This document shows positions 1,973 through 28,390 of a stretch of 64,000 nt of DNA, piece after piece. Each line of letters begins with the position of its first letter. Within the stretch, counting starts at the first letter, position 1. The stretch comes from an uncultured Gammaproteobacteria bacterium (GTDB lineage Bacteria; Patescibacteriota; Microgenomatia; JALYQM01), in the NCBI GenBank assembly GCA_964525495.1, contig CAZGHS010000005.1:12599-76598 (forward strand). The letters are read 5' to 3'. Made by a program: the position numbers and the translations under genes. The notes below the pieces were generated by a model. The model did no database searches. It worked only from the letters and a program-made list of their open reading frames with translations, and was not told the DNA's origin.

Positions 1973-2062
1973 TTTTTCAGCTTTTTTTAATTTCATTCCT
2001 TGAAAATTTCAGGCAAATGTTCATACTAGAATATACGGGGTTTTAGGCCTTCGGCTTTTGGT

Positions 2063-5000
2063 ATGAAAATGAAAAAATTACATATAGGAATACTTGTCAC
2101 TGTCTTGGTTGTGCTTATTGGGGTTCCGGTAACGGTTTCCGTCGGCGTGGCAGGATTAAACAAAGTAAACAAGCTAGCAAGTTCAAAAACTGCTAAATCA
2201 ACAACAGGTTTAGAAGCAGTTCCTCTCAATGGCCAAGTACTACAAGCAGCAACTGAGGCAACAGGTGCAAGCGTCATAAACTTTAATGCGCCAGCTATCT
2301 TTAACGAACCAACCAGATTCAATGCAGATATCGATGCAAGTGATAACAATCTCACATTGGGTGAAGGAGAATTAACAGCATCAAACGTAATTTACTCAAT
2401 TCAAGGCATCAATGGTATTACCGTAACAGGTGGACAAAATGCAGTAATATCCTTTACGGGTTTAACTGGAATTCTTGCGGGCGACGGAATAGAGCTCACA
2501 ACAGGCTCAACACCAACATTAACCAACACAGGTGTCACGTCGTTTCAGGGCGAGTCCGGAGCTATCACACTAGATGAAGGAGACGGGATCGAAATAAGTG
2601 GAACAGAAATTTCAAACGATGACCCCGGTACTGCTCAAGACATTTTCAAAATAATTGCAGTATCTGGACAAAATGATATTGAAGCTGACGAAAACAATGA
2701 CACATTAACATTCGTGGCTGGATCAAACATTACCCTCACAACAAATGACTCTGGTGACGCTCTAACAATTTCTTCTGCCGCAAGTGCTGTTAGCGGCTGG
2801 GAAGATGACGGCACTGATGTTAGGCTCTCAACTATCACAGATAATGTTGGTATCGGAACTGCAACGCCCGGTTCCAAGTTGCATGTAGTTGGTACGACAA
2901 CCATTTCATCTACCTTAACTCTGGGTGGAAGCATGGTTTTAGGAAGCGATACCGTCAATGATTTAACGGGGGACGGCCTTGCAGTGAGCGGCAGCGCATT
3001 AACTGTTAATTTAACAACATCAGGCAGCGCTGGTTCTACATCGTCAAATTCGGGATTAGAGGTCTCTACAGCTGGATTAACCATGATTAAAGGCTGTGCA
3101 GATGGAGAGCTTCTCAAGTGGGACAATACCGCAAATCTATGGGAATGTGCAACTGATGATGGTGGAACAACAGGCATAATCAATGTACAGGAAGGCGACG
3201 TAACCGTAAGTGCAAGTGCAGGTACGTTAGATTTCCTTGGAAATGATTTTGCATTAACAGAATCACCTGCCGGCGAGATCAACGTTGCCATTGATTACAC
3301 AAACTCAAATATTACCCGCACAAATCAAAATGAAACCATCACAGGGACTTGGACATTTAGTAATGTAATTACGGCAAATGGCGGATTGACTATTGCGGGA
3401 GGTCAATCATTAACGCTGGGCAGTGACGCGGTAACTGACCTTACAGGAACAGGCATAACAGTTTCAGGAGGCTCACTACAAACAACTTTAGGCACATCAG
3501 TTGACTTAGCTTCTGCAGAAGTAACGGGCACGCTCCCTGTTGGAAATGGCGGTACAGGTGCTACTTCGTATACTGCAGGATCAGTAGTATTTTCGAATGG
3601 AACTATTCTCACACAAGATAATACAAATTTATTTTGGGACGATACAAACAACCGTCTTGGTATAGGAGATAACTCGCCAAACTCTGCTTTAACAATTGGT
3701 GCAAGTGATGCCTTCCAAGTCAACTCATCCGGAGCAGTCGCAGCCGCAACAGGCATTTCTTCCTCAGGTAATTTAAACTTTACTGGATCAGGCACATACA
3801 CGCTTGCAAACATTGCGAGCGGGGCGTCCTTTAGCGGAAGCAGAATAGTTGGAGTATCTCAAACAGGTGTGTTAACCACCGTGGCTGATGGAAGTGACGA
3901 TCAAGTATTAACAACTGACGGCGCAGGCGTATATACCTGGAAAGACATTGGTTCAATCCTTGAACCGACAAATGCCTTTATTAACAACGGAAATTCATTT
4001 GCTGCTTCTGCGACATTAGGTACAAACGATACAAATAGTTTAGCACTTGAGACAGACGGGACGACTCGAATTACAATTCTCGCCACTGGCAATACAGGTA
4101 TCGGCGATGCATCTCCCGCGTCATTGTTTACAGTAGGCTCAGGAGATTTATTTCAAGTAAACTCATCAGGAGCAATCGCAGCAGCAACAGGAGTAACCTC
4201 ATCTGGAACGATTACATTTACGGGATTAGGCTCTGGTTCTGGGTCAACACTATGTATAGACGGGTCAAATCAGGTTGTAACCTGTGCAGTCTCTCCAGGA
4301 GATATAACAGCAGTGGGAGATATTACGTCTGGCGCAGCATTCGACGGTACTCAAGGCAATACATTGTATTTCGAAGGAACATCAATAGATGCGAACGAAA
4401 TTGCACTATCAGGTGCTGATGCAACGGTAGATCGGACAATTACACTTCCAGATCTTTCAGGCACAGTTGCTCTCTTAGAAAATTCACAAACATTTTCTGG
4501 AGCTAAAACATTTACTGCTGCCATGACAATTGACGGAAATTTAGCCATCAATAGCTCAAGTACAACTATCGGTGACTCTGGCTCTGACAGCTTAACAATC
4601 AATGCGACAATCTTAGTTGGTTCACCATTAGTATTCGAAGGTTCGACGGCTGACGGCAACGAGACAACCCTAACAGTAACTGACCCCACTGCAGATCGAA
4701 CTATTACTATTCCAGACCTAACAGGTACCGTTGCACTGCTTGAAAATGCACAAACATTCTCTGGAGCGAAAACCTTCAGCGCTGGACTCATCGTTTCTGC
4801 AAGTGGAGCATCAATAACAGGAGGAATAGATAATAACTCTGGAGGCATCACAGAGGCAGGAGCAATATCCGGAGTTACTACTTTGTCAGCATCTTCTACA
4901 GTAACGCTCACTGGTTTAGGTTCAGGGACCGGATCCTATTTGTGCTTGGACGGGTCAAACAATGTAGTTACATGTTCTGGAACAACGGGAGATATAACCG

Positions 5001-8000
5001 CAGTCGGTGATGTAACATCAGGCGCTGCATTTACGCAGACAGCAGGAAATGACGGAAACAATATATATTTTGAAGGATCAAGTGCTGACGGAAACGAAAT
5101 AGCCTTAACAGCAGCAGATCCAGGATCTGACTTAACGGTTACATTACCAGCGATCACGGGAACGTTAGCTTCTCTCGCAGGATCACAAACATTTACAGGA
5201 GCAAAAACATTCAATGCTACAACCACATTTGACGGTGCAATCGCTGCCAATACAGATATAGATCTCACATTTGCAGCGGCAGAAAACATGACTCTCACAA
5301 ACTCTTCTGCTTCTACAGATCAATTATCATTATCTATCACCGGTGTTACGACAGACGGAGTTGACGCGTTTGCAATTGCTTATACTCAAGCAGACGACGC
5401 TGATTCAACAGACACAAATAGTGCAGTAAATATAGCGTTAACATCATCCTCAGGCGATGCTGATGCCCTATACGGCCTCCAGTTTGCAGACTTTACCAGT
5501 GGCTCTGCAACTGAAACAGCGCTCCGATTCGGAACGGGTTTTGACAATATCCTCGAAATCGAAGGATCTACAGCAGATGCAAACGAAACATTTCTTACAT
5601 TCACAGACCCAACGTCAGATCGCACAGTTACATTCCCAGATGCATCAGGAACAGTGTGTTTGACATCTGGTAACTGTGCAGGTGTCGGTGGGGTAGGAAC
5701 AATTACAGCAGTCGGTGACATCACATCAGGGGCGGCTTTTACGCAGACCGCAGGCAACGATGGGAACAATATATACTTCGAAGGTTCAAGTGCTGACGGA
5801 AACGAAATAGCGTTAACAGCAGCAGATCCAGGGTCTGACTTAACGGTTACACTACCAGCAATAACAGGAACACTCGCGTCTTTGGCAGGTACTCAAACAT
5901 TTACAGGCGCAAAAACATTCAACGCAACAACTACATTCGACGGTGCCATAGCAGCTAATACAGATATAGACCTAACCTTTGCTGCTGCAGAGAATATGAC
6001 GTTAACAAATACGTCCGCCTCCTCAGATCAACTCTCCCTTTCAGTGACAGGAGTAACCACCGATGGTGTCGATGCCTTTGCAATTGCCTATACTCAGGCC
6101 GACGACGCTGATTCTACAGATACCAACAGTGCAATCAACATTGCTCTAACATCTTCATCGGGAGACGCCGACGTTTTCTATGGACTTCAGTTTGCAGATT
6201 TTACAGCAGGAACAGCAACTGAAACAGCGTTCAGAATCGGAACCGGATTCGATAATGTTTTAGAAATCGAAGGCAGCACGGCAGATGGCAATGAAACCTC
6301 CGTAGCGTTTGCTGACCCTACAGCCGATCGAACGGTCACATTCCCGGATTCATCTGGTACAGTTTGTCTCTCATCGGGAAACTGCGCTGGCGGCGCAGGA
6401 GGATCAAAATGGACAGATAGTGGAACGCTAACATATCTAACTGACTCAACTGACAGCATAACAATTGGTTCGACATCTGAATTGGCAAAATTAGCTGTCG
6501 ATGGCGACGCAGACGAAATTCAACTATTGATCCAAGGTAACGGCACCCAAACGTCAAGCCTATTAGTACTCGAAACCTCCGCTGGAACAGATCAATTAAC
6601 AGTATCGAATGCCGGAGCATTAGGGTTAGAAGGTGCAATCTCAGATATTACTGGTGCTACAGTTGAAATAAACGACGATCTTCAAGTAACTGGCAACGAC
6701 ATCTTAGATTCTGGTTCAACATCCCGAGTCACACTTGGATCTAATACTATATTAACAAACACAACAACAACGTTATCTGGAACAACAACGCTTACCGCAA
6801 GTTCGCTTGCAACACTTACTACAGCAGCCACACTAGATATGACTGCAACAACAACGCTAAACTGTACAGATTGTATTAACTTTGACGACCTATCAGATTC
6901 GCTATCACTTGATGCAGGTACAACAATAGCCTTAGGGACTAATACATTAACGCTTAACGCAAGCGGTACAGGGGATGTAATATTCCAGGACAATGGAACA
7001 CCGGTCTTGACTTTCAACGACTCAGGCAATACTGTCTGGTCACTTCCAGCAGGAAACAATATACAAATTGACGGAGCCACAGCAGATTCAACTACAACTA
7101 CCGGCGTTGTTGATGTCGACGTAGATTCCGCAACAGACAATAACATCGGTATGTCGATTGATTATCAAGATACAAATACCGGAGCTTCACAAACAAAATA
7201 CGCCCTGAGAACAGATATAACCATTGATACAAATGGAACCGGTAACGACACGGTGTATGGAAACTACATCTCATTTACTCAGGACGACGCGGCAGCCACC
7301 GCATATGGCTTATATGTAACAGGTGAGGATCGCAACTATTTCTCGGGAAATGTTGGAATCGGAGACAGCTCACCTACAGCTGCATTAACAGTAGGTTCGG
7401 GTGATGCATTCCAAGTAAACTCATCAGGTGCTGTTGCAGCTGCAACAGGGATAACTTCTTCAGGAACAATTACATTCTCAGGGTTGGGCACCGGTGTAGT
7501 GCAGTCCAACGGCTCAGGAGTTCTTTCCTCTGGTGCGCTTGATCTAGCAGGAGGCGCAAGCTATATAACTGGTGTCCTTCCTCTTGGAAATGGTGGCACT
7601 GGATTCTCTACGTATACTCAGGGAGACTTATTATATGCATCTGCAGCAAATACACTTTCAAAACTAGCTGTCGGTGGAAACACTACTGTCTTAACAGTAG
7701 CAGGAGGAGTACCTACATGGGCTACTGCTACTGTCGCGTTTAATAACATTTCAGGCGGAACCAATACAACTGCGGCAATGGTTGTCGGAACAGGATCATC
7801 CCTTAACTTTACAGGCTCAGGAACAATTAATGCCTCTACTCTATTGGGATCAACATGGGCGTCTCCAGGGACAATCGGATCAACTGCACCAAATACTGGT
7901 GCATTCACTTCACTTACAACATCAGGAAATACATCACTAACTACCGGAGCTGGCAACGACACAACAATTGGCAACGCCACCGGGACTTTCGAGTTAGTTT

Positions 8001-11000
8001 CGGACGCATTAGATATTTCAACAACAGGCGCGCTTTCAGGTGCAACGGGCTTATCGTCCTCTGGAAATCTGACCTTCACAGGTTCTGGAACATATACGCT
8101 CGCAAACATTGCGTCTGGTGCGTCTTTCTCAAACAATCGACTTGTCCAAACAACAAGTGCAGGTGTGCTTTCAACCATCCCAGATGGAAGCACTCCAAAC
8201 CAGGTACTAATCACCGACAGCAATGGCAATTTCTCTTGGACAAGCGCAGCTGGGGTTATTGCTCCAGACTCACTAGATTTCACAGAATTCAGTGACTCGA
8301 TGTCTCTCGATGCTTCAACTTCAATTGCTTTTGACGCTGCAGAAGTACTTACGCTAAACGCAGCAACTGTGGATACCACCACCACAGGCGGTGTACTAGA
8401 CATGAATATTGATGCAGGGAACGCAGCAGTGATTGGATTAAATGTAGACTTTGCGCAATCCAACGGTGCAACAGCAGCAACAGACGCAGTCGCACAAAGG
8501 CTTACATTATCCGCAAATGATGCTGACGGCGACATGTTTGGATTACAAATAGTAGGAGCTGCAACAACGAACGCAGCTGCAGGAAGTTACGAGGCAGCCC
8601 TCTCAATAGACAATGTTGAAGATACTGTGGCATCCATGACCGACGCAATCCTCATAACATCATCAGGAGTAAATAATGGTGTAACAGACGCCATCGATAT
8701 ATCCGCAGCAAACATTAACAACGCTATTAATGCAGGTGCAAATTTCATACTTATGGATGGAATTCGCATATTCGAAGGTACAACAGGCACCATAACAATC
8801 GAAGATACTGCAGGTAACGACCTCATGACTATCGCTGATGGCGGAACAGTCGGTAATGCATCCATAACAGGCACGCTTGCTGTGTTAGGATCTACGATTG
8901 GACTCGACAGTGATGCTGATGCAGATAATTTGATAGGAACAGCAGCAGCAGGTGGCGCTGCAGCTTCAAATCTTTATTGGGGGAATAGGCTTCTCTGTGA
9001 TGCCACACAAGTAAACTGTGGATGGTCCGCAGTAGGTGGCAATGCTCCATGGACGACAACATCAAATGTGGTAAATCTTAATACTGCAACAGATAACGTA
9101 ACTGTAGGATCTGCAACAAATTTAGCAAAACTCGCAGTTGATGGCGACACAGACGAAATACAGTTACTAATCCAAGGCAACGGAACACAGACGGCAAATC
9201 TTGTAGTATTCGAAACATCAGCAGGGACGGATCAACTGACGCTATCAAACGCGGGTGCCTTAGCAATCGAAGGTGCAATTTCCGACATAAGTGGGACAGT
9301 TTTAGAAGTTAACGACGATCTGAAAGTAACAGGCAACGATATTATCGACTCAGGTGACGTAACACGAATATCATTAGGAGCAACCACAACACTTACTAAT
9401 TCCGCTACGACACTATCTGGAACAACGACCCTTACGGCTACCTCATTGGCCACGTTTTCTACAGCTGCAACACTCGACATGACATCTACAACAACACTTA
9501 ACTGTACTGACTGTGTTAATTTCGACGACATGTCGGACTCCCTTGCACTCGACGCGTCAACCTCAATAGCCTTCGATGCCGCTGAAGTATTAACACTCGA
9601 TGCAGCATCAACAGATACTACTACTACTGGTGGCGTGCTAGACTTCAACATTGACGCAGGCAATGCGGCTGTCCTAGGTTTGAATATCGATTTTGCTCAG
9701 TCCAACGGTGCAACAGCAGCAACAGACGCAGTAGCACAAAGGCTAACCTTATCAGCAAATGACGCAGACGGAGACATGTTTGGTTTACAAATCATCGGCG
9801 CCGCAACAGCAAATGCTGCAGCTGGTTCTTACGAAGCTGCAATATCGATAGATAATGCTGAAGACACTGCAGCTTCCATGACAGATGCAATTTTAATCAC
9901 CTCATCAGGCGTAAATAATGGTGTAACCGACGCGATAGATGTCTCTGCTGCAAACATAAACAACGCAATCAACGTAGGTGCAAACTTCATATCAATGGAC
10001 GGGGTGAGAATGTTTGAAGGTTCAACGGGAACACTTACTTTTGAAGACACGTCCGGAAATGATTTAATGACGATTGTTGATAATGGCACAAATGGAAATG
10101 TAACGATCACAAACAATCTCTCAGTAACAGGCACAATCACTGCTAACACAGATGAAACAATCAATGGACTAGATATCAACGCAGGTGCAATATCTGACGC
10201 AACGAGCCTAGCTATCTCTTCAGCAGCAAGCACGGCAATTGCACTAACCAGAAGTTCGGCTGGACAATGGATGTCTTTCAATGACGGCACAGATGCCTGG
10301 GGTTTATATAACACAGCTGGCTCGCCGGAAGGAGTGCTCGCAGCCAATACAGGTGCACTTTCAATGGATACCACTAACGGCACTTTGTATGTCAAAACTG
10401 ACGATGGTGACAATACTGGCTGGGTAAATCTCGCAACCGGAGGAAGTTCTCCATGGCAAACAACATCTAACGTTACCAATCAAGTCACTTCAACAGACGA
10501 TGTGACAGTCGGCTCAGCTGTTGATTTAGCAAAACTGGGTGTCGATGGAGATTCAGACGAAATTCAATTCTTAGTACAAGGCAACGGAACACAAACAGCT
10601 GGCTTACTAGTATTAGAAACCTCAGCAGGAACAGATCAATTTACGGTATCTAATGCTGGTGCAGTGGGTATCGAAGGAGCAATCTCAGATATTACCGGAA
10701 CAGTTGTTGAAGTAAATGATGATTTGAAAGTAACAGGCAACGACATCATTGATTCAGGTGACACAACACGTATTTCACTTGGCGCAACAACAACCTTAAC
10801 AAATACAACAACAACGCTATCAGGCACAACAACCTTGACTGCATCATCTTTAGCAACTCTGACAACTGCGGCAACGCTTAGTATGGCTTCAACAACAACA
10901 TTAAACTGTGGTGATTGTATCGACTTTGATGATATGAAAGACTCGCTATCAATAGATGCTGCAACAGATATTAACCTTGGAGCTAACGCGCTTACAATCG

Positions 11001-17691: not shown

Positions 17692-17770
17692 TCCATACCA
17701 AATGCAGAAAAACTAGAACACATCACTTCGCTTTAGTTACGAAAAATTCTAACAAAGTTAGAAATAGATA

Positions 17771-17797
17771 TTGACGTAATCGCAGTATTGATATAAA
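17771..17797 (+). promoter_or_regulatory. Putative sigma70-type promoter (-35 TTGACG, extended -10 TGATATAAA) upstream of the 17814 gene
   Basis: TTGACG at 17771-17776, TATAAA at 17792-17797 preceded by TG. The spacer is short (15 nt), but the extended -10 element compensates. It lies 17 nt upstream of the ATG in the only sizeable intergenic gap of the surface-protein block. Confidence 0.4.
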
Positions 17798-17813
17798 ACC
17801 ATAGTAATCATTA

Positions 17814-20800
17814 ATGAACAAACACGTCAAAAAACTCGCATACACATTTTCGTCACTACTTTTATTAAGCAGTTTAATCGGTAGTGATAATTCTATTTTT
17901 GATCCAAAATCCGCATTCGCAAACCCGCCAGTCAACTTTACAAACGAAATTCTTACGACAAATCTTACAGAACCCACAGGATTAACATTCACACCTGACG
18001 GTCGAATGTTATTTATAGAGCGAGCAGGAACGATTAGAGTAGTTGCTGCGGGTGGAACAACACCTAACACAACACCATTTCACCAAATAACAAACATCAA
18101 CACGAGCGACGGAGAAAGAGGATTAGTGGGAATTGCGGTAGATCCAAATTTCACTTCAAACAATTATTATTATGTTTTTTACACAGCAAACTCACCTTTG
18201 CGAGATCGAGTATCTCGATTCACCGCAAATGGGGATACCACAGTATCCGGCAGTGAAGTAGTAATTTGGCAGGAACCAACACAAGCCGGCCTTTGGCATC
18301 ATGGTGGAACAATTGCATTTGGTCCAGACGGAAAACTATATATCTCAACAGGAGATGGATTTGATTCTGGTTCAGGATCAAATCATGTTTCACAAAGACT
18401 AGATAGCGTAAGAGGAAAAATACTTCGCATTAATTCCGACGGAACAATTCCTTCGGACAATCCATTTAATGACGGTGGAGGATCAAACTTTGACGAAATA
18501 TGGGCGCGCGGTTTACGCAATCCATTTAGATTCTCATTTGATTCTACAAACGGCACTATGTATATAGGTGATGTAGGTGGAAACTCAACGGTAAGCTCGA
18601 TAGAAGAAGTAAACAGGGGTGCCGTTGGAGCTAATTTCGGTTGGCCAATTTGCGAAGGAACCTGTTCCACTTCGGGTATGACCAATCCTATCTACACATA
18701 TAATCACGGAGGACGAGATGCGTCAGTAACAGGTGGTTTTGTGTATCGAGGTTCGCTATTCCCCACAGAATATCAGGGAACATATTTTTATGGTGACTAC
18801 GTACGCAATTGGGTAAGATATCTCACATTTAATACCAATGGAACAGTGAGTGGATCAACCAACTTCGAACCAACAAACGGAACAGAAGACGGACCATATG
18901 GTGAGATCGTAGATATAAAAATGGGACCAGACGGCAATATATATTACGTAGATTACGGTACAACCTGGGAAGGTCAAAGCAATCCAGGAAAAATCAGAAG
19001 AATAAAATATACTGGAACAACAAATCAGCCACCAATTATCACTTCAGCGACTGCAAATCCTTCAAACGGGCCAGGTCCAATACTAGTAACAGATTTTTCA
19101 GTTGCTGCATCCGATCCAGAAAATAATACATTAAGCTATTTGTGGAATTTTGGAGACGGAAACACTTCTTCACAGCAGAGCCCAAGCCATACATATACAG
19201 AGCCAGGAGAATACATAGCTCGAGTAACGGTTTCAGACGGTACAAATCAAACTCTTTCAAATCCCATTAATATTACTGTCGGTAATAGACCAGTAGTATC
19301 AATTGCCTCGCCGACAATAAATCAATCGTTTAGAGGTGGAGATAGTATTTCATTTAGTGGGTCAGCAACTGATCCAGATGAGGACCTTCCGTTATCAGCG
19401 TATTCTTGGAGAGTAATATTCAACCACGAATCACACACGCATCCAGCCGCCGGCCCTATCGAAAACACGACGTCAGGTTCCTACACAATTCCTACAACAG
19501 GTCACGATTTTTCTGGGAACACAAGTTATGACATTTTACTTACGGTAACAGACAGTACGGGATTACAGGGAACCGCTTCTGTCAGAATTAATCCTGAAAA
19601 AGTTAATCTTACATTCAACACTTCACCAACAGGACTCGGCCTTAACTTCGACGAGCAGACTAATATAACAACATCATTTGTGAGAGATACTTTAATCAAC
19701 TTTCAACACACTGTCGAAGCCCCAGTAACACAGCTGCTCGCAGGTAATACGTATACATTCCAATCATGGTCAGATAGTGGTGCAGCTCAGCATATAATCA
19801 CTGCCCCTGCTACAAGTCAAACATACACTGCAAACTATCAGTTAACAGCAAGTCCTACCCCGACTGCTGCACCTACGGCTACACCAGTGCCAACGGCAAC
19901 ACCAACTGGAACCCCATCGCCAGCTCCTACTGCGATACCCACCACAGGTACAAGTCTACAATTTGATGGGGGAGACATGGTATCTGGTACGAACGTTCCT
20001 TTGCTTACGCAGTTTACCTATGAAGCATGGATAAAACGAACAGCTGACAACGGGACTTACCAAACATTTCTATCTGACGCAAATACAAACTATAACGCAG
20101 CCATGGTCACGCTGTTTGTAGACGGAGGAAATAGTGATTGCGGAAGCTCACCAACTGATCAGATCGCATATTTTCAATTGCAATCAGGGGGCAGTTCGAC
20201 TCAATGTTCAGGGGTAACGGCCACGCTTAATCAGTGGTACCACGTAGCTGTAACGCGAGATGCAGCAGGAACACGCAGGGTATTTATCGACGGAACACTA
20301 AGATCGACAAATACAAGTACAGTAGCTCCAGCAGATAGCACAGGTCTCATGACATTAGGGCGAGCTGGTTCGAGCAGTGACGAGTACTTCACTGGACGGA
20401 TTGATGATGTACGGGTTTCAAATACAGCCAGATACACTACAAACTTTACACCATCAGCTATCAGTGGGTCAGATGCAAACACTATCTTCGCATGGAATAT
20501 CAACGAAGGATCAGGACAGACACTTGCTGACCTATCAAGCAACAATCGTAACGGAACACTAGGCAGTAACACAAATGTTGAAGCAACTGATCCTGTTTGG
20601 TCAACAGATAGCCCCTTGGGCGGAGCAGCTCCTAGCCCAACACCAACAGGCACTCCAGCACCGACGGCAACCCCTATTTCTACAGCAACTCCTGCTCCAA
20701 CTGCGACGCCAATAATAACTCCAACACCGATACCAACGGCAGCACCAACCGGAACCCCTATACCTACAGCTACACCAATTCCTACTCCTACCGCCACTCC

Positions 20801-21575
20801 GGCAATAACACCTACCCCAGTTCCCACAGCAACACCTACGGCTGTCCCAACAGCGACACCAATTCCTACCTCGACCCCGACATCAACTCCAGTTCCTACG
20901 GGAACAACGCTTAACTTTGCCGGGGACGATGTAGTACAGACAGTAAATATTCCTTTAGCAACACAATATACATTTGAAGTATGGGTAAAGCGTTCGGCTG
21001 ACAGTGGAGGATACGAAACATTTGTATCCGATGCAAACAGCGCATACAATCGCGCGATGGTCACGCTATTTATTGACGGAGGAAACAATGACTGTACAGG
21101 GGTATCTGACCAATTCGCGTTTTATGAGTCAAGAGCGAACGGATCGAGCACTCAGTGTTCGGGAGTAACAGCTTCATTGAATCAGTGGTTCCATATTGCC
21201 GTAACACGAGATGCTGCAGGCACTCGACGATTCTTTGTTGACGGCACTTTGCGGACAACACAGACAGGAACGGCAACGCCAACTGACAGTGCTGGAGTAC
21301 TTACTTTCGGTCGTGCTGGTGATTCTAGTTCGGAATATTTCAGTGGAAGAATAGACGACGTGCGTGTAGTAAGCAACGCAGTCTATACTACAAACTTCAC
21401 AAGGCCAACAGCACCGCTCACTACCGTGACAGGAACAATTGGACTCTGGAACATTACAGCAGGAAGTGGACAAACTGTAGCAGACACTTCTGGCAACAAT
21501 CGCAATGGACGATTAGGTACTTCAAATTCCGCTGATTCACGTGATCCAAGTTGGGTGTCAGATAATCCATATTAA
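17814..21575 (+). CDS. Secreted multidomain protein: PQQ-dependent sugar dehydrogenase-like (GSDH/YliI-type) beta-propeller + 2 PKD-like domains + Thr/Pro linkers + 2 LamG domains
   Basis: Signal peptide. The GSDH-family motifs (LT.P.G..F.PDGR, GLVGIA.DPNF, WHHGG.I.FGPDGKLYI..GDG, LRGKILRIN.DG.IP.DNPF, GLRNPFRF) are all present. PKD signature WNFGDGNTS...HTY.EPGEY...TVSDG. Two LamG units with W.KR.AD, W.H.AVTRD and GRIDDVRV. Confidence 0.8.
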   Translation: MNKHVKKLAYTFSSLLLLSSLIGSDNSIFDPKSAFANPPVNFTNEILTTNLTEPTGLTFTPDGRMLFIERAGTIRVVAAGGTTPNTTPFHQITNINTSDGERGLVGIAVDPNFTSNNYYYVFYTANSPLRDRVSRFTANGDTTVSGSEVVIWQEPTQAGLWHHGGTIAFGPDGKLYISTGDGFDSGSGSNHVSQRLDSVRGKILRINSDGTIPSDNPFNDGGGSNFDEIWARGLRNPFRFSFDSTNGTMYIGDVGGNSTVSSIEEVNRGAVGANFGWPICEGTCSTSGMTNPIYTYNHGGRDASVTGGFVYRGSLFPTEYQGTYFYGDYVRNWVRYLTFNTNGTVSGSTNFEPTNGTEDGPYGEIVDIKMGPDGNIYYVDYGTTWEGQSNPGKIRRIKYTGTTNQPPIITSATANPSNGPGPILVTDFSVAASDPENNTLSYLWNFGDGNTSSQQSPSHTYTEPGEYIARVTVSDGTNQTLSNPINITVGNRPVVSIASPTINQSFRGGDSISFSGSATDPDEDLPLSAYSWRVIFNHESHTHPAAGPIENTTSGSYTIPTTGHDFSGNTSYDILLTVTDSTGLQGTASVRINPEKVNLTFNTSPTGLGLNFDEQTNITTSFVRDTLINFQHTVEAPVTQLLAGNTYTFQSWSDSGAAQHIITAPATSQTYTANYQLTASPTPTAAPTATPVPTATPTGTPSPAPTAIPTTGTSLQFDGGDMVSGTNVPLLTQFTYEAWIKRTADNGTYQTFLSDANTNYNAAMVTLFVDGGNSDCGSSPTDQIAYFQLQSGGSSTQCSGVTATLNQWYHVAVTRDAAGTRRVFIDGTLRSTNTSTVAPADSTGLMTLGRAGSSSDEYFTGRIDDVRVSNTARYTTNFTPSAISGSDANTIFAWNINEGSGQTLADLSSNNRNGTLGSNTNVEATDPVWSTDSPLGGAAPSPTPTGTPAPTATPISTATPAPTATPIITPTPIPTAAPTGTPIPTATPIPTPTATPAITPTPVPTATPTAVPTATPIPTSTPTSTPVPTGTTLNFAGDDVVQTVNIPLATQYTFEVWVKRSADSGGYETFVSDANSAYNRAMVTLFIDGGNNDCTGVSDQFAFYESRANGSSTQCSGVTASLNQWFHIAVTRDAAGTRRFFVDGTLRTTQTGTATPTDSAGVLTFGRAGDSSSEYFSGRIDDVRVVSNAVYTTNFTRPTAPLTTVTGTIGLWNITAGSGQTVADTSGNNRNGRLGTSNSADSRDPSWVSDNPY
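19950..21572 (+). repeat. Intragenic duplication of a LamG domain (about 19950-20610 and 20905-21572) separated by a Thr/Pro/Ala linker (about 20625-20900)
   Basis: Both copies share TQ[FY]T[FY]E.W.KR.AD.G.Y.TF.SDAN..YN.AMVTLF.DGGN.DC...STQCSGVTA.LNQW[YF]H.AVTRDAAGTRR.F.DGTLR. The linker is almost pure PT/AT repeats (TPAPTATPISTATPAPTATPIITPTPIPTAAPTGTPIPTATPIPTPTATP...). Confidence 0.8.
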
Positions 21576-21598
21576 AATATAATAAAAAAGAGGTGCAT

Positions 21599-24500
21599 AT
21601 GTTACTAGGTGAAAGATATTTTAAATTAGGCACACTATCTCTTTTCATAGTGCTCATCTTAGGGATGAGTTTTTTTTATACATCGGCTCATGCTGATTCA
21701 AACATATATCAGATAACTGCCAGCGCAAATGATGTGAATCAAGACGGTAATACACTTGATATTACAAGCGCAAACATGTGGTTAGGTACTGGTGCTAGTA
21801 CGTCAAGTTCTTATACTGGATTGCGGTTTACAAACATAAATATACCTAAAGGAGCAACAATCAACTCGGCAAAGCTTCAGGTCTTTTCACCTTCATCAAG
21901 TTGGATATCGATGACTTTTGATTTCGCAGCTGAAGCAGCAGATAACAGTGCAATATTCTCAACAACAAGCAAACCTTCACAACGAACAGTAACAAACACA
22001 AAAATACGGCACTCAAGCAATAACTCATGGTCAGCAAATACGAATTATACGCTTGACGAAATAAACACAGTGGTACAAGAAGTCATCAACAGGCCGGGAT
22101 GGACCAGTGGTAACAGCCTATCACTTGTCCTAAAAGGAGCAGGAAGTTCCTATGGAAGAAAAAGTATCCGTGCATACAACGGTACTCCAGCCAACGCGCC
22201 AAAACTTTTAGTAACATTTTCCGTAGCTGGTACACCGACCCCTGCACCAACGAGCACGCCGACCGCAACACCCACAGCAACTCCAGTACCAACGACTACC
22301 CCTACTGTTGCACCAACAGCTACCCCCACTATATCTCCTACAGCAACATCGACGCCTATACCAACTGCAACTCCCACCTCGCAACCAAGTAATGTTGCCT
22401 ATTACAATATAAATACTTCTACCTCAACTAGCGCAGGATACGATGCCGTTTCGTGGTCACAAGGATACCCCATCACTGTAGATAAATTTGGAAAATATAT
22501 AGTACCTATACAACGTCATGGATTCAGCAGCGAAAACTTTGCAGTCAGTAATGATGCCGGAGCAACATGGATAGAGCTAGACGGCTCAGGTATCCTCAAT
22601 AGATCATCTATTGCATACGATAGTATAAATGACACGCTCCAAGTAGTAACAACTGCAAACGCAGTGGCTTATAGTAAATATTCAATAGTTCGTGATGGCA
22701 ATAACAACATTACGAGTCTAGCACTTGATGGAATAATGAATATAGAAACTGGGGCAGGTTGTACTGCAATGGATATTAGAAATCCTATAGCACTATGGAA
22801 AGATGACGGAGCAAACGGACAGGTGGTTGCGTTCTGGTCAGTTAGTAAAACATGTTCAGGATCAAGCATAGTAGAAACACGTGCCGCTATGCGAACACTT
22901 TCAAACTCGGCCGCAGATAGAACAGCATCAAATTGGAAAGCATTAAACGGAGTCTCAAGTGCACCAGGATCTGTCGGTCCTGCGCTTGTTGCATACAATA
23001 AAATATATGGAATTAATACAGCGTATGACCGTCCATTTCAACACTCCGCAATGATCCAAGGCGGAGGCGGAGTTCATAGCAATGATATTTACTATTTCAA
23101 CATAGATCAAAACGATACTCACGGATTCCAAAGGTTAACGTGGAATCCTGCATTAAATGATTGGTCAGGTTCATGGACATCGAGGGCAGTATTTGGAGGA
23201 AATGTAGGAGATAATCTTGGATATAATTTAAAGAAAGAGCTATTAAGTAAACCTGTTTATGCTTCAAATAGCAACAGAGTATATGTAGGAATATCTAGAT
23301 GGTTAACAGGCGGGGCTGGTGACTCTCAATCACTATTCTATGTAGATGACAGTGATATCGTTATCGAAGCAGGAAACGTATACTCTGCTAATGGTACCGC
23401 GTTCCTCTATCCGACATTTGATCTTATGTACGATCAAGTAACAGGTTTAGTAAATTTCTTCTATCTCACCACAGGAGTAAATCAGAACGGTCATGTATAT
23501 TACAAATCATATGACGGTTCGAACTTCTCTACAGCAAAACCATTTTTTACAGCAGCCGGACAAACGGTAGATATTCCAATCGTCTATCAGTCGAGAATAG
23601 ATAATAAAGCAGTCTTGTTCTTCAGAAAAAACAAAACAAGTGATCCAAACACACCTCCTCATGAAATATTTTTTGGCTACGCAAAGCTTGATACTCCTGT
23701 TCCAAACCCAACGCCTACAGCCACTCCTACAGTCGCCCCGACCGCAACTCCAGTACCCACGTCCACTCCTACTGTCGCGCCAACAGCTACGCCCACACCG
23801 ACTAGCACCCCAACACCTACAGCAACACCAACAACCGCTCCAACCAACCCGCCTGGGGAAACAGTAAAAGGGTCATTTGAAATAGGACAGGGAGGCTCCG
23901 ATGTGATTCCGCATCAAATAGTTCGCACTCAAGATGACAAAGTATATACGTTTGGATATGCTGGCCAATACCAACCAGTGCTCAAGGCATATTGGACAAA
24001 TGGTACAGGTATACCAACACAGACTAGTCATTTCAGTGGTTCAACACAAGTTACCGACAGCTCAAACTTAATCTCTGTAGATGCAGTCTATGATGGAAGC
24101 GCTATTATCCACGTCATAACAAACACACAGGGTGGAATTACCAAAGATTATCCATTTGACACAACAACAAATACTTTCAGGTCACCTCAAACTGTTGCTA
24201 CGAACACTAAAACAGTCAGTGGAGATTACGTAGGATCAAGCGGAGTATCAGCAATGTTCGACACGGCTGGAGATCTGCACATCGCATATTGGACGAATGA
24301 TAACTATGTCAAATACGGAAAATATCAGTATAGCAACAATACAAACACGCTAACGCAAGTTGAAGGTCCAACCACAGTAGATGCCGACGTAAACGCAAAC
24401 CATCCAAGTCTCGCAGTGTCTCCACTAGACAACTCAATTTCAGTAGCTTGGATATCACAGAGTGGAACACCTCGCATTTTATACCGCGAAAAGACAGTAA

Positions 24501-25723
24501 ACGGGTGGAATCCTATTCAACAAGTAAGTACGTCTCGTCCGTGGACAAGCAACAACTTTGGTGTGAACATCGACCAAGGCCCAACAATAATAATAGATAC
24601 AAATGGTAAAAAATACCTTACATACATCGAAGATTTTGATAATACAGGCGATTATGGAAGTATTCATTATGTAACAAATGCATCGGGATCCTGGATAGAC
24701 ACGGAGCTATCAAATACATATAGCCACGATCCAGTATTAGCATTAGCTCAAAACGGTGACCAATATCTTATTGGTCACGGGCATCCTAACAACACATCAT
24801 GTAAATTAATGACGGTAATGTGTACAAAGAAACGAAATACAAACGGAGTATGGGATTCATCACTCGAGTTTGCTACACCAACAGGATCAGATTCATACGA
24901 TTCAAGCCCAAGTATTAAATGGTCTGTAGTAGGATTTAATCGTCCTGAAACTATAGAATTCGTCTTCCCAAGGATAATAAATAATAACTACAACACATCA
25001 AGTCTTATGTACGGATACATTAATTACAATACTCCAACACCGACACCAACTGCCGCTCCGACCGCAACACCAGTTCCAACTCCTACTGCTACTCCGGCCA
25101 TAACACCAACCCCTGTACCAACGATCACTCCAACTTCCGCACCAGTTACAATAACCTATACAGTTCCATCAAATGATAGAGACGCATGGTCGGGTAATGC
25201 GCACACTGGCAATCCAAATAACGAAGTAAGAGTAAACGGTTATAACAACACAAATGAACCGTACTTATTCGTCAGTAATGACAGTGATGAAGAATCTGCG
25301 GGGATGCAGTTCCAAATCGATGTGCCGCAAAATGCTACTATTCAAAACGCGTTTTTGACAGTCACTGCTGGTTCATTCCAAAGTCCTAGTGCAACGGGGG
25401 GAATGGGAATTCAGATCTATGATGTCGGCAATACAACGGCCTTTCAAAATGGGTTTTTGGGAGATCTTATAAATCATCACCCTCGTTATGGAACAAGTAT
25501 CATGTGGTCAGATCCAACAACGTGGACAAATGGGTCTATAAAAAGCTCGCCAAACATCAACGCACTTGTCCAGCACATAGTGAATAGGACTGATTATGCA
25601 CAAAATAACTTTATAGGGTTTGTGATTGACGAAGGAACCTTGCAAAGCGGAAAATATTACGGATGGGACGACTACTTTGGCGGAGATCCTGCAAGGTTAA
25701 CCGTGACATATACAACAAATTAA
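21599..25723 (+). CDS. Secreted 1.37k-aa surface protein with a BNR/Asp-box-containing domain, three Thr/Pro linkers and similar N- and C-terminal capping domains
   Basis: Signal peptide. Asp-box SNDAGATW. TP linkers at about 22225-22385, 23700-23850 and 25035-25140. The N-terminal (about 21690-22200) and C-terminal (about 25150-25720) domains share a pattern (..NEP.LF / GLRF.NI.IPKGATI..A.L.V compared with QFQIDVPQNATIQNAFLTV). A GTG at 21593 is an alternative start; the ATG at 21599 is preferred given the upstream AGAGG. Confidence 0.75.
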   Translation: MLLGERYFKLGTLSLFIVLILGMSFFYTSAHADSNIYQITASANDVNQDGNTLDITSANMWLGTGASTSSSYTGLRFTNINIPKGATINSAKLQVFSPSSSWISMTFDFAAEAADNSAIFSTTSKPSQRTVTNTKIRHSSNNSWSANTNYTLDEINTVVQEVINRPGWTSGNSLSLVLKGAGSSYGRKSIRAYNGTPANAPKLLVTFSVAGTPTPAPTSTPTATPTATPVPTTTPTVAPTATPTISPTATSTPIPTATPTSQPSNVAYYNINTSTSTSAGYDAVSWSQGYPITVDKFGKYIVPIQRHGFSSENFAVSNDAGATWIELDGSGILNRSSIAYDSINDTLQVVTTANAVAYSKYSIVRDGNNNITSLALDGIMNIETGAGCTAMDIRNPIALWKDDGANGQVVAFWSVSKTCSGSSIVETRAAMRTLSNSAADRTASNWKALNGVSSAPGSVGPALVAYNKIYGINTAYDRPFQHSAMIQGGGGVHSNDIYYFNIDQNDTHGFQRLTWNPALNDWSGSWTSRAVFGGNVGDNLGYNLKKELLSKPVYASNSNRVYVGISRWLTGGAGDSQSLFYVDDSDIVIEAGNVYSANGTAFLYPTFDLMYDQVTGLVNFFYLTTGVNQNGHVYYKSYDGSNFSTAKPFFTAAGQTVDIPIVYQSRIDNKAVLFFRKNKTSDPNTPPHEIFFGYAKLDTPVPNPTPTATPTVAPTATPVPTSTPTVAPTATPTPTSTPTPTATPTTAPTNPPGETVKGSFEIGQGGSDVIPHQIVRTQDDKVYTFGYAGQYQPVLKAYWTNGTGIPTQTSHFSGSTQVTDSSNLISVDAVYDGSAIIHVITNTQGGITKDYPFDTTTNTFRSPQTVATNTKTVSGDYVGSSGVSAMFDTAGDLHIAYWTNDNYVKYGKYQYSNNTNTLTQVEGPTTVDADVNANHPSLAVSPLDNSISVAWISQSGTPRILYREKTVNGWNPIQQVSTSRPWTSNNFGVNIDQGPTIIIDTNGKKYLTYIEDFDNTGDYGSIHYVTNASGSWIDTELSNTYSHDPVLALAQNGDQYLIGHGHPNNTSCKLMTVMCTKKRNTNGVWDSSLEFATPTGSDSYDSSPSIKWSVVGFNRPETIEFVFPRIINNNYNTSSLMYGYINYNTPTPTPTAAPTATPVPTPTATPAITPTPVPTITPTSAPVTITYTVPSNDRDAWSGNAHTGNPNNEVRVNGYNNTNEPYLFVSNDSDEESAGMQFQIDVPQNATIQNAFLTVTAGSFQSPSATGGMGIQIYDVGNTTAFQNGFLGDLINHHPRYGTSIMWSDPTTWTNGSIKSSPNINALVQHIVNRTDYAQNNFIGFVIDEGTLQSGKYYGWDDYFGGDPARLTVTYTTN

Positions 25724-25789
25724 TTTGTCATAGGAACAGCGTAAAAAATAGCTTTATCATTCTCCTTAAAGATGCTACTCTAATAGAGA

Positions 25790-28390
25790 ATGAAAAAAAT
25801 ATTAGCTTCATTTGCTGTTATTCTCTTAATAGGGTTAGGGGTGTTTGCTTATACAAACACTAGAGCCGATGGAACATATGCATCCCTCGGTACAACTGAT
25901 GCTGGAGATGGAAGCAATGACGCTATCAACTTCTCCCAAGGACGTGTCTGGACAATTGACCAATATGGCAAATACATCTGGCTGACCCAAACTCGCGTTT
26001 CTACAACTACCCATTGGGCTTGGTCAAATGATAATGGAGCCAATTGGTCACAAAGCTCCGAAAGCTACACATTTTTAACGCGAGGATCCGTCGCCTATGA
26101 TTCAATCAACGATGTTTTACATGTCATTTGGGCTGCAACCGATACTAATGATGGAATTATTTATCGCCGCTACGGCATTACACGCGACGGGTCAAACAAT
26201 ATCACCGCCATCGCCCGCATCAATACCGGAGTCAATTTACAGTTAGACACCTCTTCCTCGCGCAACTTAGATCAACCAGTCGCACTCTGGGTCAATGATG
26301 GAACAACAGATGGTACACTCGTCGCAATCTGGCCTAAACACGGCTCAAGCATCAACGAGGTCAGAGCCTCGCGAAGACGACTATCAATGACAGACGCCGA
26401 TGGAGTAGCCGGTAACTGGTTATCACTTGACGGTACAGCCGATACCATCTCAACCGATCCTCCAGCAGTCGCAGCCGATCAAATATATTTTGATACTTCT
26501 GGAGCAGTTGCAGTCTCAGCCAGTGTTCGCGGAGGAACCGGATCACGTAAAGACAACCTCTATGTATTCGTGGCCGAAGAAGACGATAATAGCGGAGATC
26601 AGTTATTAGCGTACCGTGCAACTTGGAATTCAGGCAGTACCAACTGGAGTGGTGGTTGGGCACAAGTCGGAGTGATGGGGGCGATGGACACATCATCAGG
26701 CTATACACTCAAATACCAGCTTGTTACCAAGCCAGTCCTCGACACAACCAACGACAAACTCTATGTAGGATGGGCGCGTTGGAAAGATGGTACAAACGGA
26801 GATACGGTAAGCATGGCCTCGTTGAATAGTTCTGACGCGATCTCTTCAACGGTCGACATTTACTCAGCACTCGGCACCCATGCCTATGCACCTACCATAG
26901 ACCTCGCATACGATGACAAACAAGACTATATCTATGCCTCATACATCCAGTCTACAACTAACGGCGGCAACGGTCATATTGATTACAAAACATACGATGG
27001 AACAACACTCAGCTCTGCCACTAGATTTTACACCTCGCCAGGTGGCTCAGCTGGAGCTGACGGCGGCGCAGATATCCCTATTCTCTACCAAAATAGAAGT
27101 AACAACAGGCTACTATTTGGATTTCGTATCAACGGCGCTCTACCGCCAACCGGTGTGAATCCTCACTCCATCTATTGGGGGTATGTCACGCTTCCAACTC
27201 AACCAACTGTCCAGTTCACATCGACTTCCGCATCAGGATCAGAAGGTACGACTTCCGTAACTTTGCCAGTTTCGCTTTCCGGATCATTTTCTCGAGATGT
27301 CACTGTCAGTTATTCCGTAACAGGTGGTACTGCAACCGGTTCGGGGAGTGACTATACGCTTTCATCTGGAACTGCCACAATAACAGCTGGCAGCACCTCA
27401 ACGACAATTCCCGTTACTGTGGTAAACGATTCAACTGACGAATCAGACGAAACCGTTATCGTAACACTTTCTAGTCCAACATTCTCTACACTGGGATCGA
27501 ATACTGCCTATACGTACACTATTACCGACAACGATGACGCTGCAACTACTTCTTCAGGTTCATCTTCTAGTAACAATAATACAGCAAGTTCAAATGAGCC
27601 ACCAGTTTGTGCAGACAGAAAACCTGATCAGACTCCAAGATTGTATGCTTCATCAAGTGAAGGAAAGTCATCAATAAAAATCTATTTTGCTGACGATTCT
27701 CAAAACGTCAATAAATACGCAATTGAATACGGCACACAGTCAGGTAAATATACATACAGCGCAGATAATATAGGCGGAAAAGGAGCACGAACTTATACAA
27801 TTCAATCGCTCACAGAAAACACGATCTATTATGTCAGGATTCGCAATGGCAACGGTTGTGCAACAGGTTCGTGGTCATCAGAAATATCCTCGAAAACTGA
27901 GGGAACAGATAATACTATTGCAATAACAAATATCACACAGCCACAAGAAAGCACACAAAAACCCTCACCTAACCCCTCAGCATCTCCAACCAATGCTTGG
28001 ACAAGTAGGCCATCGCCCACACCATCAGCGCAAGTTGCTGGATACACAGTAAAAATTAAAGTAAATGATGACGATAAAAAGCCGGTGGAGAACGCTAAGG
28101 TAACGCTCCATTCAACTCCACGGACTGCATTTACAAACAAAGAAGGTATTGCTGAATTCAAAGATGTTGAAAGAGGTAATCACAAAGTTGAAATTGCGTA
28201 TGATGGATATCAAGGGCAGCAACAGTTAACGTTAGAAGGAGAAGTCAAAGAATTTAATATTAGTGTCGAGATTAAAAAAACTGACAGTAGTATCTCAAAC
28301 TACGTATATGCTGCACTTGCAGGTGTAATCATTTTATTAATTTTAGTAATAGTAGTGATGAAATCACGTAATAAGAATAATCGTACTTGA
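25790..28390 (+). CDS. Cell-surface protein: BNR/Asp-box domain (paralog of the preceding gene) + Calx-beta + fibronectin type III + CarboxypepD_reg-like domain + C-terminal TM anchor with a basic tail
   Basis: Signal peptide. About 430 aa are paralogous to gene 21599 (SVAYDSINDVLHVIW compared with SIAYDSINDTLQVV; Asp-box SNDNGANW; YKTYDGTT compared with YKSYDGSN). Calx-beta pattern (SGSEGTTSVTLPVSLSG...VTVSYSVTGGTATGSGSDYTLSSGTATI.AGSTS.TIPVTVVND...DETVIVTLSSP). FN3-like segment. C-terminus YVYAALAGVIILLILVIVVMKSRNKNNRT. Confidence 0.8.
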   Translation: MKKILASFAVILLIGLGVFAYTNTRADGTYASLGTTDAGDGSNDAINFSQGRVWTIDQYGKYIWLTQTRVSTTTHWAWSNDNGANWSQSSESYTFLTRGSVAYDSINDVLHVIWAATDTNDGIIYRRYGITRDGSNNITAIARINTGVNLQLDTSSSRNLDQPVALWVNDGTTDGTLVAIWPKHGSSINEVRASRRRLSMTDADGVAGNWLSLDGTADTISTDPPAVAADQIYFDTSGAVAVSASVRGGTGSRKDNLYVFVAEEDDNSGDQLLAYRATWNSGSTNWSGGWAQVGVMGAMDTSSGYTLKYQLVTKPVLDTTNDKLYVGWARWKDGTNGDTVSMASLNSSDAISSTVDIYSALGTHAYAPTIDLAYDDKQDYIYASYIQSTTNGGNGHIDYKTYDGTTLSSATRFYTSPGGSAGADGGADIPILYQNRSNNRLLFGFRINGALPPTGVNPHSIYWGYVTLPTQPTVQFTSTSASGSEGTTSVTLPVSLSGSFSRDVTVSYSVTGGTATGSGSDYTLSSGTATITAGSTSTTIPVTVVNDSTDESDETVIVTLSSPTFSTLGSNTAYTYTITDNDDAATTSSGSSSSNNNTASSNEPPVCADRKPDQTPRLYASSSEGKSSIKIYFADDSQNVNKYAIEYGTQSGKYTYSADNIGGKGARTYTIQSLTENTIYYVRIRNGNGCATGSWSSEISSKTEGTDNTIAITNITQPQESTQKPSPNPSASPTNAWTSRPSPTPSAQVAGYTVKIKVNDDDKKPVENAKVTLHSTPRTAFTNKEGIAEFKDVERGNHKVEIAYDGYQGQQQLTLEGEVKEFNISVEIKKTDSSISNYVYAALAGVIILLILVIVVMKSRNKNNRT

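Follow-up and report, generated by a model that had tools for sequence, protein, structure and literature searches.

A run of five giant genes directly behind the F-type ATP synthase (atp) operon of a Patescibacteria (candidate phyla radiation, CPR) bacterium raises the question of what their products do at the cell surface. The genes, labelled G1 to G5 in 5'->3' order, were analysed in a 64,000-nt stretch of contig CAZGHS010000005.1 (the window) and compared with loci of relatives (L001-L026). Their open reading frames (ORFs) fill positions 2063-28390 of the plus strand with exactly the extent and sizes given in an earlier note on this DNA (Table 1); together they encode 8708 aa and take up 41% of the window. 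G1 starts 90 nt after the end of atpC, and Thr plus Ser account for 22-26% of G1-G5, in line with the position behind the atp operon and the Thr/Ser-richness described before. ORFs of this length cannot arise by chance in DNA of 40% GC. The block probably encodes a glycan-directed cell-surface fibre and lectin apparatus. Its architecture is well supported: the products are secreted or anchored and carry binding-type beta modules in a small-genome Patescibacteria lineage. To this extent the attachment or recognition apparatus proposed in the earlier note stands, and we infer an adhesive role and attachment to a host.

Part of the evidence for this reading lies at the C-terminus of G1. The C-terminal profile of the G1 family (A3) matched PDB 3gqh_A (E 2.6e-5), the self-cleaving auto-chaperone from the C-terminus of gp12, the tailspike of phage phi29 (Pfam PF11962, Peptidase_G2). 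The alignment begins at residue 1 of the 3gqh chain, 'DFAEYF' opposite 'DVAENF' of G1; the match thus starts at the cleavage-site residue, and the motif D-Phi-A-E-x-[YF] is kept in G1. Across 183 aligned domains, the D-x-A-E motif keeps its D in 96%, its A in 93% and its E in 96%, and the aromatic residue is conserved in 94%; the conserved acidic residues at the gp12 cleavage site presumably have a catalytic role. An AlphaFold2 (AF2) model of G1 aa 3015-3626, calculated as a monomer, contained a chaperone core with a predicted local distance difference test (pLDDT) mostly of 90-96 and dips to 58-77. When this model was searched with Foldseek against the PDB, the top two matches were both phi29 gp12, namely 3suc (1.3e-4) and 3gqh_A (1.8e-4, TM-score 0.53), and the further matches included other tailspikes, depolymerases and pyocin fibres. 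Against viral models (BFVD), 59 matches reached E<=1e-3, the first being a 'Preneck appendage protein' (E 5.5e-11, TM-score 0.63), and tail fibres and K1-lyase_C proteins were among them. By both the AF2 core and its structural neighbours G1 has the fold of a gp12-type chaperone, and the phage-fibre likeness noticed earlier is thereby backed by profile and structure. Relatives of G1 match Peptidase_G2, K1-lyase_C, Peptidase_S74 and collagen in Pfam; PF11962 itself was matched by three of 27 relatives (best 2.4e-6), and G1 alone had no Pfam match at E<=0.01. Peptidase_S74 found no match in G1, and the one relative among the 27 with S74 (P0002) carries the motif outside the region aligned with G1.

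At its other end G1 begins with a transmembrane (TM) helix that leaves seven residues on the cytoplasmic side. Since this helix and the 'GxVLxA...FxVN' module behind it can be aligned with the internal TM helix and the juxtamembrane stretch of relatives that bear a helix-turn-helix (HTH) domain, the helix is most likely an uncleaved N-in/C-out anchor. G1 is an N-terminally anchored giant fibre protein and an HTH-less member of a large CPR family. At least five families of internal repeats make up its mosaic shaft, which also contains four copies of the motif 'GIGDxSPxxxLTVGSGDxFQVNSSG'; the repeats were revealed by BLAST of fragments against the whole protein, self-BLAST of the whole having given the diagonal only. 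Paralogous modules are saturated at synonymous sites (pS 0.62-0.76) with low non-synonymous divergence (pN 0.07-0.16). This pattern marks the repeats as ancient and constrained by purifying selection, and it strongly supports translation of, and selection on, the ORF. Recent duplication as the source of modules that are 90-95% identical is ruled out by the saturated synonymous sites. Alignment with the L015 orthologue is confined to the C-terminal module (41%) and a single internal one (69%); the shaft thus diverges fast, and tip and chaperone are conserved. G1 had no match in profile searches of Pfam, NCBIfam or PHROG, phmmer against PDB sequences returned low-complexity CopC/PETase noise only, and no catalytic family was detected in any of these searches.

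The family to which G1 belongs is very large. A profile built from the non-repetitive C-terminal ~600 aa of G1 retrieved 24,005 proteins from 1.84 billion representatives (2,692 at E<=1e-30), and the match sits at the very C-terminal end of CPR proteins, many of them giant. Among the 144 best representatives, 31 have at least 3,000 aa and the longest has 7,954. A MerR/HTH_17 domain followed by a TM helix (aa ~90-200), fibre and chaperone is found in 24 of these 144, and 32 begin with a TM helix and no HTH, as G1 does. G1 thus possesses the C-terminal and the TM/juxtamembrane modules of the family and lacks the N-terminal MerR/HTH_17 domain; neither an HTH remnant nor a detached HTH gene was found within the window. 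A tighter family alignment (A5), used in the locus scan, found 7 metagenome loci only. Public records label the proteins 'hypothetical' or 'MerR family DNA-binding transcriptional regulator'; NCBI and JGI name surface proteins of 2,000-4,700 aa MerR regulators because an N-terminal HTH precedes the internal TM. Giant HTH-bearing members occur among P0135-P0277 and at L015 38-11131, L021 8001-23072, L022 8001-26540, L023 8001-22499 and L026 9001-29535. Runs of N interrupt the repetitive G1-like gene of GCA_002293705.1 (L010 768-1736), and owing to such assembly gaps giant members are probably under-called in metagenome-assembled genomes. The 183 chaperone-like domains come from 149 proteins, so that some members have two gp12-type domains. 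Named homologues belong to Patescibacteria/CPR, namely Gottesmanbacteria, Microgenomates, Woesebacteria, WWE3 and the 'Patescibacteria group'. The window comes from a Microgenomates-like lineage and from neither Absconditabacteria nor Saccharibacteria; its atpD has only 55% identity to the best match in the GTDB species representatives.

The gene behind G1 encodes a lectin array. G2 contains the DUF2341 domain that had been predicted for it, and its six LamG/concanavalin A (ConA)-like domains together with two in G3 make up the eight or more LamG domains claimed before (Laminin_G_3, 417.6 bits in G2 and 147.5 in G3, cut-off 27.6). A leader with a predicted AxA site after A50 precedes them. On the NCBIfam model NF052521 (TafC family fimbrial protein) G2 scored 181.5 bits, short of the cut-off of 410 and over repeated LamG stretches only. 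The reported 16-nt overlap with G1 holds for the GTG start at 12928, and the alternative ATG at 12958 would give a 14-nt gap instead. A G2-type gene directly follows the G1-like gene in 10 other loci, among them L010, L013, L014, L015, L017, L021, L022, L023 and L026. In L010 it is a full-length G2 orthologue (E 8e-178) that overlaps its G1-like neighbour by 4 nt; the overlap measures 14 nt in L015, 4 nt in L017, 32 nt in L021, 1 nt in L023 and 4 nt in L026, and a 10-nt gap separates the two genes in L022. The G2-like gene of L024 is a 201-aa DUF2341 remnant beside insertion sequence (IS; DDE transposase) genes (L024 19348-21252), and L016, L025 and the distant members L011, L019 and L020 lack a G2-type gene behind the G1-like one. 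Judged by gene order and overlapping frames, G1 and G2 form a conserved, apparently translationally coupled pair across CPR lineages.

The neighbourhood of this pair is conserved as well. A G1-family gene lies within 10 kb of an F-type atp operon in nine loci (the window, L001, L002, L003 and L021-L025), and the operon adjoins the fibre gene in five of the six loci that were picked via the fibre gene and had enough visible flank. The three loci with the closest atpD (L001-L003) each have a G1-family member within 10 kb; five distant atpD loci that were checked have none in this range. The operon is divergent from the fibre gene in L021-L024, directly downstream and co-directional in L025 (WWE3), and upstream and co-directional in the window, and the atp linkage therefore survives three arrangements; it may reflect either synteny of the lineage or a functional coupling. 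The genes that carry the annotation ATP-synt_DE_N in L021 and L023 share 37-43% identity (E 1e-17 to 1e-20) with atpC of the window. From the recurring G1-G2 pairing and the atp synteny it follows that the G1-G2 pair is a conserved lineage locus and not a strain-specific island, the possibility for which the earlier note had suggested a comparative check. Only G3 and G4 appear to vary, as seen in one comparison with the closest relative found (L015), where a G5-like gene with a frameshift (66-72% identity) comes directly after the G2-like gene and neither G3 nor G4 lies between the two. This split gene (L015 16264-18045) is either a pseudogene or the product of a sequencing error. The raised GC of the block is due to codon position 2 (0.50-0.55, vs 0.31-0.45 in the flanks), an amino-acid effect. 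GC at codon position 3 (GC3, 0.31-0.37) is within the range of the flanks, so that composition shows no sign of recent acquisition; a horizontal-transfer island was rejected on GC3 and on codon usage. Scans of the block for promoter and terminator consensus sequences stayed at background level, including the gap at 17.7 kb, which had been described as promoter-like and where no plus-strand promoter consensus rose above background.

These observations are read most economically as a surface recognition or attachment apparatus, which fits published views of giant CPR proteins (PMC8080830, PMC13059738, PMC10633639). G1 would be exported with its N-terminal helix staying in the membrane. Starting at the C-terminal end, its repetitive ectodomain of ~3,200 residues would fold into a long shaft, probably homotrimeric and similar to a phage tailspike or tail fibre; the gp12-type (Peptidase_G2-like) intramolecular chaperone would nucleate folding and then probably be cut off before Asp3285, which would expose the conserved tip. 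G2, made from the abutting or overlapping frame, would be a secreted six-LamG array that most likely works with G1 and possibly docks on this tip. G3-G5 may act as accessory secreted or C-terminally anchored proteins that present propellers, LamG, PKD, Calx-beta and FN3 domains on Pro/Thr linkers. Together the five products may bind glycans on the envelope of a partner or host cell or on other surfaces.

Among the closest known counterparts of G1 is gp12, a homotrimer whose intramolecular chaperone domain is missing from the virion, the mature gp12* ending at residue 691 (PMC9863714, PMC6542822). Both proteins have a beta-rich C-terminal domain of the same fold after a fibrous repetitive region. 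Unlike phi29 gp12, G1 is cellular, membrane-anchored and about four times longer, has no detectable enzymatic beta-helix, remains under every Pfam threshold and continues after the core with a stalk and a beta-sandwich. In phage T4 (gp37-gp38) and in Mu (fibre and chaperone), a tail-fibre gene is followed by a gene for an adhesin or assembly factor. As in these pairs, the partner gene stands directly after the fibre gene, often with overlapping codons; unlike their products, G2 is a lectin array of 1,587 aa that carries an export signal of its own and is unrelated to known fibre chaperones, and its physical interaction with G1 is putative. Endosialidase-type chaperones (Peptidase_S74, including that of MYRF) resemble the G1 domain as C-terminal self-cleaving domains that drive trimerisation of a triple-beta-helix, but S74 is a helical coiled coil with a Ser-Lys dyad. 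MYRF illustrates the recruitment of a phage tailspike domain into a membrane-bound eukaryotic protein with a DNA-binding domain (PMC8326128, PMC3742443). Among CPR epibionts, giant membrane proteins and fibrous surfaces have been described in Vampirococcus lugosii and Strigamonas methylophilicida (PMC8080830, PMC13059738), and in the cultivated Saccharibacterium Southlakia epibionticum glycan-binding envelope proteins were scored essential and interpreted as adhesins (PMC10633639). These reduced-genome Patescibacteria likewise have TM- or signal-bearing proteins of >1,400 aa with PKD, FN3 and ConA-like domains, which were read as devices of host recognition or attachment. The reports give domain content only and, unlike the present analysis, describe no tailspike-type chaperone family, fibre/LamG-array operon or atp synteny. 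Because giant CPR surface proteins and fibrous surfaces are already published, the general interpretation is not new. Among the papers listed by a full-text literature search, none combined CPR with a tailspike or an intramolecular chaperone, and on this limited search the family of gp12-type chaperones and how large it is, as well as the fibre/LamG operon and its linkage to atp, appear undescribed.

Several points weigh against an adhesive fibre and lectin apparatus. G1 scores no Pfam family and its link to gp12 is remote (15-23% identity, TM-score 0.53-0.63); tblastn gave no match in 50,697 phage records, and a scan of IMG/VR gave none; and the ~190 extra residues after the chaperone core have no equivalent in gp12. 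The AF2 monomer model of shaft and tip is of low confidence, the LamG and propeller assignments are at fold or family level, and retention of G2 on the cell has no explanation if its leader is cleaved. Moreover, the conserved tip and synteny would be expected of a housekeeping envelope structure no less than of a host-specific adhesin. G1 and G2 might accordingly constitute an S-layer-like fibrous coat or spacer, made constitutively for envelope integrity or cell spacing and not for partner recognition. This is unlikely in our judgement, although it would account for the conservation of the pair and of its atp-side position in several CPR lineages, for the lack of any compositional sign of mobility and for the conservation of the pre-chaperone tip, whereas phage receptor-binding tips normally vary; fibrous material was also seen between Vampirococcus cells, besides the epibiont-host space (PMC8080830). 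A coat or spacer would leave unexplained why the shaft has diverged past BLAST recognition between closest relatives and why the partner is a six-fold lectin array with lectin-like propellers as neighbours, and the IS disruption of the G2-like gene in L024 and its absence from L025 are unexpected for an essential scaffold.

The three remaining genes of the block include two, G3 and G4, that bear on a second alternative, in which G1 and some of its neighbours would be depolymerases, lyases and dehydrogenases that digest host capsule, cell wall or environmental polysaccharide for entry or nutrition. G3 does contain the PKD domain and the PQQ-dehydrogenase-like (GSDH) propeller named in the earlier note; the propeller scores 185.5 bits on Pfam GSDH (cut-off 25) and only 92.7 on the equivalog-level dehydrogenase model TIGR03606 (cut-off 434.55). 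G4 has a signal peptide and modules split by three Pro/Thr linkers. Like G1, it matched no Pfam family. In the AF2 model of G4 the two central modules are all-beta domains, which Foldseek reads as tandem beta-propellers nearest to the 7-bladed Photorhabdus fucose lectins PLL/PHL (TM-score 0.67-0.74), the PL42 lyase and the hydrolase BT3686, all at 11-14% identity. The BNR/Asp-box repeats claimed before were not recovered: G4 (aa 319) and G5 (aa 79) have one Asp-box-like motif each, Pfam found no BNR match, and no sialidase was among the top fold matches listed for the G4 propellers. G5 has a signal peptide and, in addition, a C-terminal TM helix with a basic tail. Its predicted Calx-beta domain was recovered by Pfam, and the predicted FN3 domain remained below the cut-off. 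Of the signal peptides or anchors ascribed to all five proteins, hydropathy gave a clear N-terminal leader in G1, G2, G4 and G5 and a weak one in G3. A module of ~170 aa, weakly DNRLRE-like, occurs at both ends of G4; it was found in 93 of ~120 homologues, fused to a wide range of catalytic or binding domains such as GSDH+PKD, Kelch/glyoxal oxidase, metallophosphatase or PilY, and its named sources are mostly Chloroflexota and CPR.

A degradative function is consistent with the depolymerising activity of gp12 and of many structural neighbours of G1 (PMC9863714), with the G4 propellers being as close to PL42 lyase and glycoside hydrolase BT3686 as to lectins, with the GSDH-type dehydrogenase propeller of G3, and with a GH8 gene and many glycosyltransferase genes nearby. 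We nevertheless consider it rather improbable, given the lack of a catalytic family in G1, the low identity of the propeller matches and the failure of G3 on the dehydrogenase model; genes for PQQ synthesis or other cofactors were not seen in the window, to which that search was confined. A prophage remnant or a tailocin-like particle with G1 as virion fibre is largely refuted and very improbable: the nearest structural relatives of the chaperone domain are all phage proteins, and G2 and G3 match PHROG 'virion structural protein' families via their LamG domains, but no capsid, portal, terminase, sheath, tube, baseplate, integrase or other phage structural or integration gene is present among the annotated ORFs of the window, G1 has a membrane anchor, the locus keeps its atp synteny across many genomes, GC3 is native, and neither the phage records nor IMG/VR gave a match.

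The fibre might also be the input domain of a membrane-tethered signalling protein that senses contact. The HTH-TM-fibre-chaperone architecture of 24 of the 144 top representatives suggests as much, and HTH variants are often divergent from the atp operon. Divergent transcription from the target operon is the classical MerR arrangement. The heptamer TTGGACA/TGTCCAA clusters in the stretch that separates the atp operon from the giant HTH-type gene in L021-L023 (intergenic region of L023, 7506-8000), with 3 copies in 369 nt of L021 (7632-8000) and 4 in 641 nt of L022 (7360-8000) where <0.1 would be expected, and the L021 and L022 clusters include inverted pairs. For G1 itself, a role as direct DNA-binding sensor is excluded and the sensor reading hardly credible: the protein has only its seven cytoplasmic residues and no HTH, the window has no detached HTH gene, and the upstream regions of L001, L024, L026 and the window do not contain the heptamer. 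The operator-like TTGGACA repeats, which occur only in L021-L023, are irrelevant to the HTH-less G1. A wider and rather doubtful proposal is that G1 represents an unnamed and very large family, apparently centred on CPR, of membrane-anchored giant 'cellular tail fibres', derived from phage tailspikes, with a gp12-type self-cleaving chaperone and a LamG-array operon partner, and kept beside atp; their HTH-bearing form, taken as the majority form, would be a membrane-tethered MerR-like regulator that passes host contact on to transcription, for example of the divergent atp operon. If true, such signalling would link the energy metabolism of obligate epibionts to their attachment.

The means by which ultrasmall CPR/Patescibacteria recognise and hold their hosts are a central open question, and most of their giant proteins lack annotation. 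With the fibre and lectin apparatus favoured here, G1 gains a concrete and testable molecular identity as a fibre of the tailspike type, predicted to be cleaved at Asp3285 and partnered by a lectin array, and it stands for >24,000 sequence clusters that are publicly 'hypothetical' or mislabelled 'MerR family transcriptional regulator'. The conserved fibre/LamG operon and its atp linkage offer handles for annotation, cryo-electron tomography and proteomics in enrichment cultures. They also raise the question whether episymbiotic bacteria domesticated phage receptor-binding hardware.

Table 1 Features of the G1-G5 block and its surroundings (positions in the 64,000-nt window)
Feature	Position (nt)	Strand	Details
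atpG (partial)			upstream of atpD
atpD	339-1691		
atpC	1688-1972	+	F1 epsilon, N-terminal domain only, 94 aa; last atp operon gene
G1	2063-12943	+	3626 aa
G1 TM signal-anchor (most likely uncleaved)	2084-2152	+	aa 8-30; hydropathy
G1 juxtamembrane module	2231-2482	+	aa ~57-140, 'GxVLxA...FxVN...'; 14 family members aligned on TM helix
G1 repetitive shaft	2870-11104	+	aa ~270-3014; fragment self-BLAST and DNA repeats
G1 shaft modules C	4988-5683, 5696-6391	+	
G1 shaft modules D	6347-7012, 9014-9607, 10409-11053	+	
G1 shaft modules E	8267-8893, 9509-10135	+	
G1 pre-chaperone 'tip'	11105-11911	+	aa 3015-3283, 'PHSFTAAGDVAIAYDLQFTNQT...'; conserved in alignments A1-A3, within family profile
G1 chaperone core	11912-12379	+	aa 3284-3439; profile match 3gqh, AF2, Foldseek
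G1 putative autocleavage motif	11915-11932	+	D3285-V-A-E3288-N-F
G1 terminal beta-sandwich	12722-12940	+	aa 3554-3626, '...VTxK...GFxVE...FxWWI'; block-mean pLDDT 76-93; C-terminal end conserved across family
G2	12928-17691	+	1587 aa, GTG start
G2 DUF2341	13207-13386	+	Pfam
G2 six LamG/ConA-like domains	13579-17637	+	~235-aa period; Pfam Laminin_G_3 E 2.7e-126
G3	17814-21575	+	1253 aa
G3 GSDH-type beta-propeller	17964-18950	+	aa 51-379; Pfam
G3 PKD	19023-19280	+	Pfam
G3 two LamG domains	19950-20450, 20904-21401	+	Pfam, LamG map
G4	21593-25723	+	1376 aa, GTG start
G4 N-module	21695-22222	+	aa 35-210, weak DNRLRE-like
G4 propeller A	22400-23785	+	homologue map, AF2/Foldseek
G4 propeller B	23990-25162	+	homologue map, AF2/Foldseek
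G4 C-module	25310-25720	+	aa 1240-1376
G5	25790-28390	+	866 aa
G5 A-type propeller	25877-27262	+	shares 36% identity with G4 module A
G5 Calx-beta	27200-27532	+	Pfam
G5 FN3	27656-27889	+	21.8 bits, short of the Pfam cut-off of 25
G5 CarboxypepD_reg-like	28046-28261	+	
G5 C-terminal TM anchor	28304-28360	+	
PMT_2-type GT-C paralogues	29006-30493, 30501-32249, 32259-33995, 37939-39456, 39460-41109, 42867-44513		
Further ORF listed with the PMT_2 cluster	41106-42791	-	

The rest of the window is centred on the envelope, with six PMT_2-type GT-C glycosyltransferases (29.0-44.5 kb), GH8, GT2 and GT4 genes, a polysaccharide flippase, znuABC and a stand-alone GSDH gene (49277-50446, minus strand, 313.8 bits) besides the GSDH domain fused in G3. 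Five of the six PMT_2 paralogues score 27.0-51.4 bits (cut-off 26.1) and the one at 37939-39456 lower, at 22.2 bits; their NCBIfam matches to Agl23 and ArnT are far below cut-off. The six genes sit directly 3' of the five genes for Thr/Ser/Pro-rich secreted proteins, and protein O-glycosylation of the Pro/Thr linkers by these enzymes is conceivable. The link was not substantiated: the NCBIfam scores are weak, the adjacency of PMT_2 genes and fibre block was not seen in the other loci, and no literature connecting such linkers with PMT_2 was found. Between the glycosyltransferase sub-clusters lie a DSPc dual-specificity phosphatase gene (35233-35754, minus strand) and a truncated-looking DUF5995 ORF (34593-34958, plus strand).

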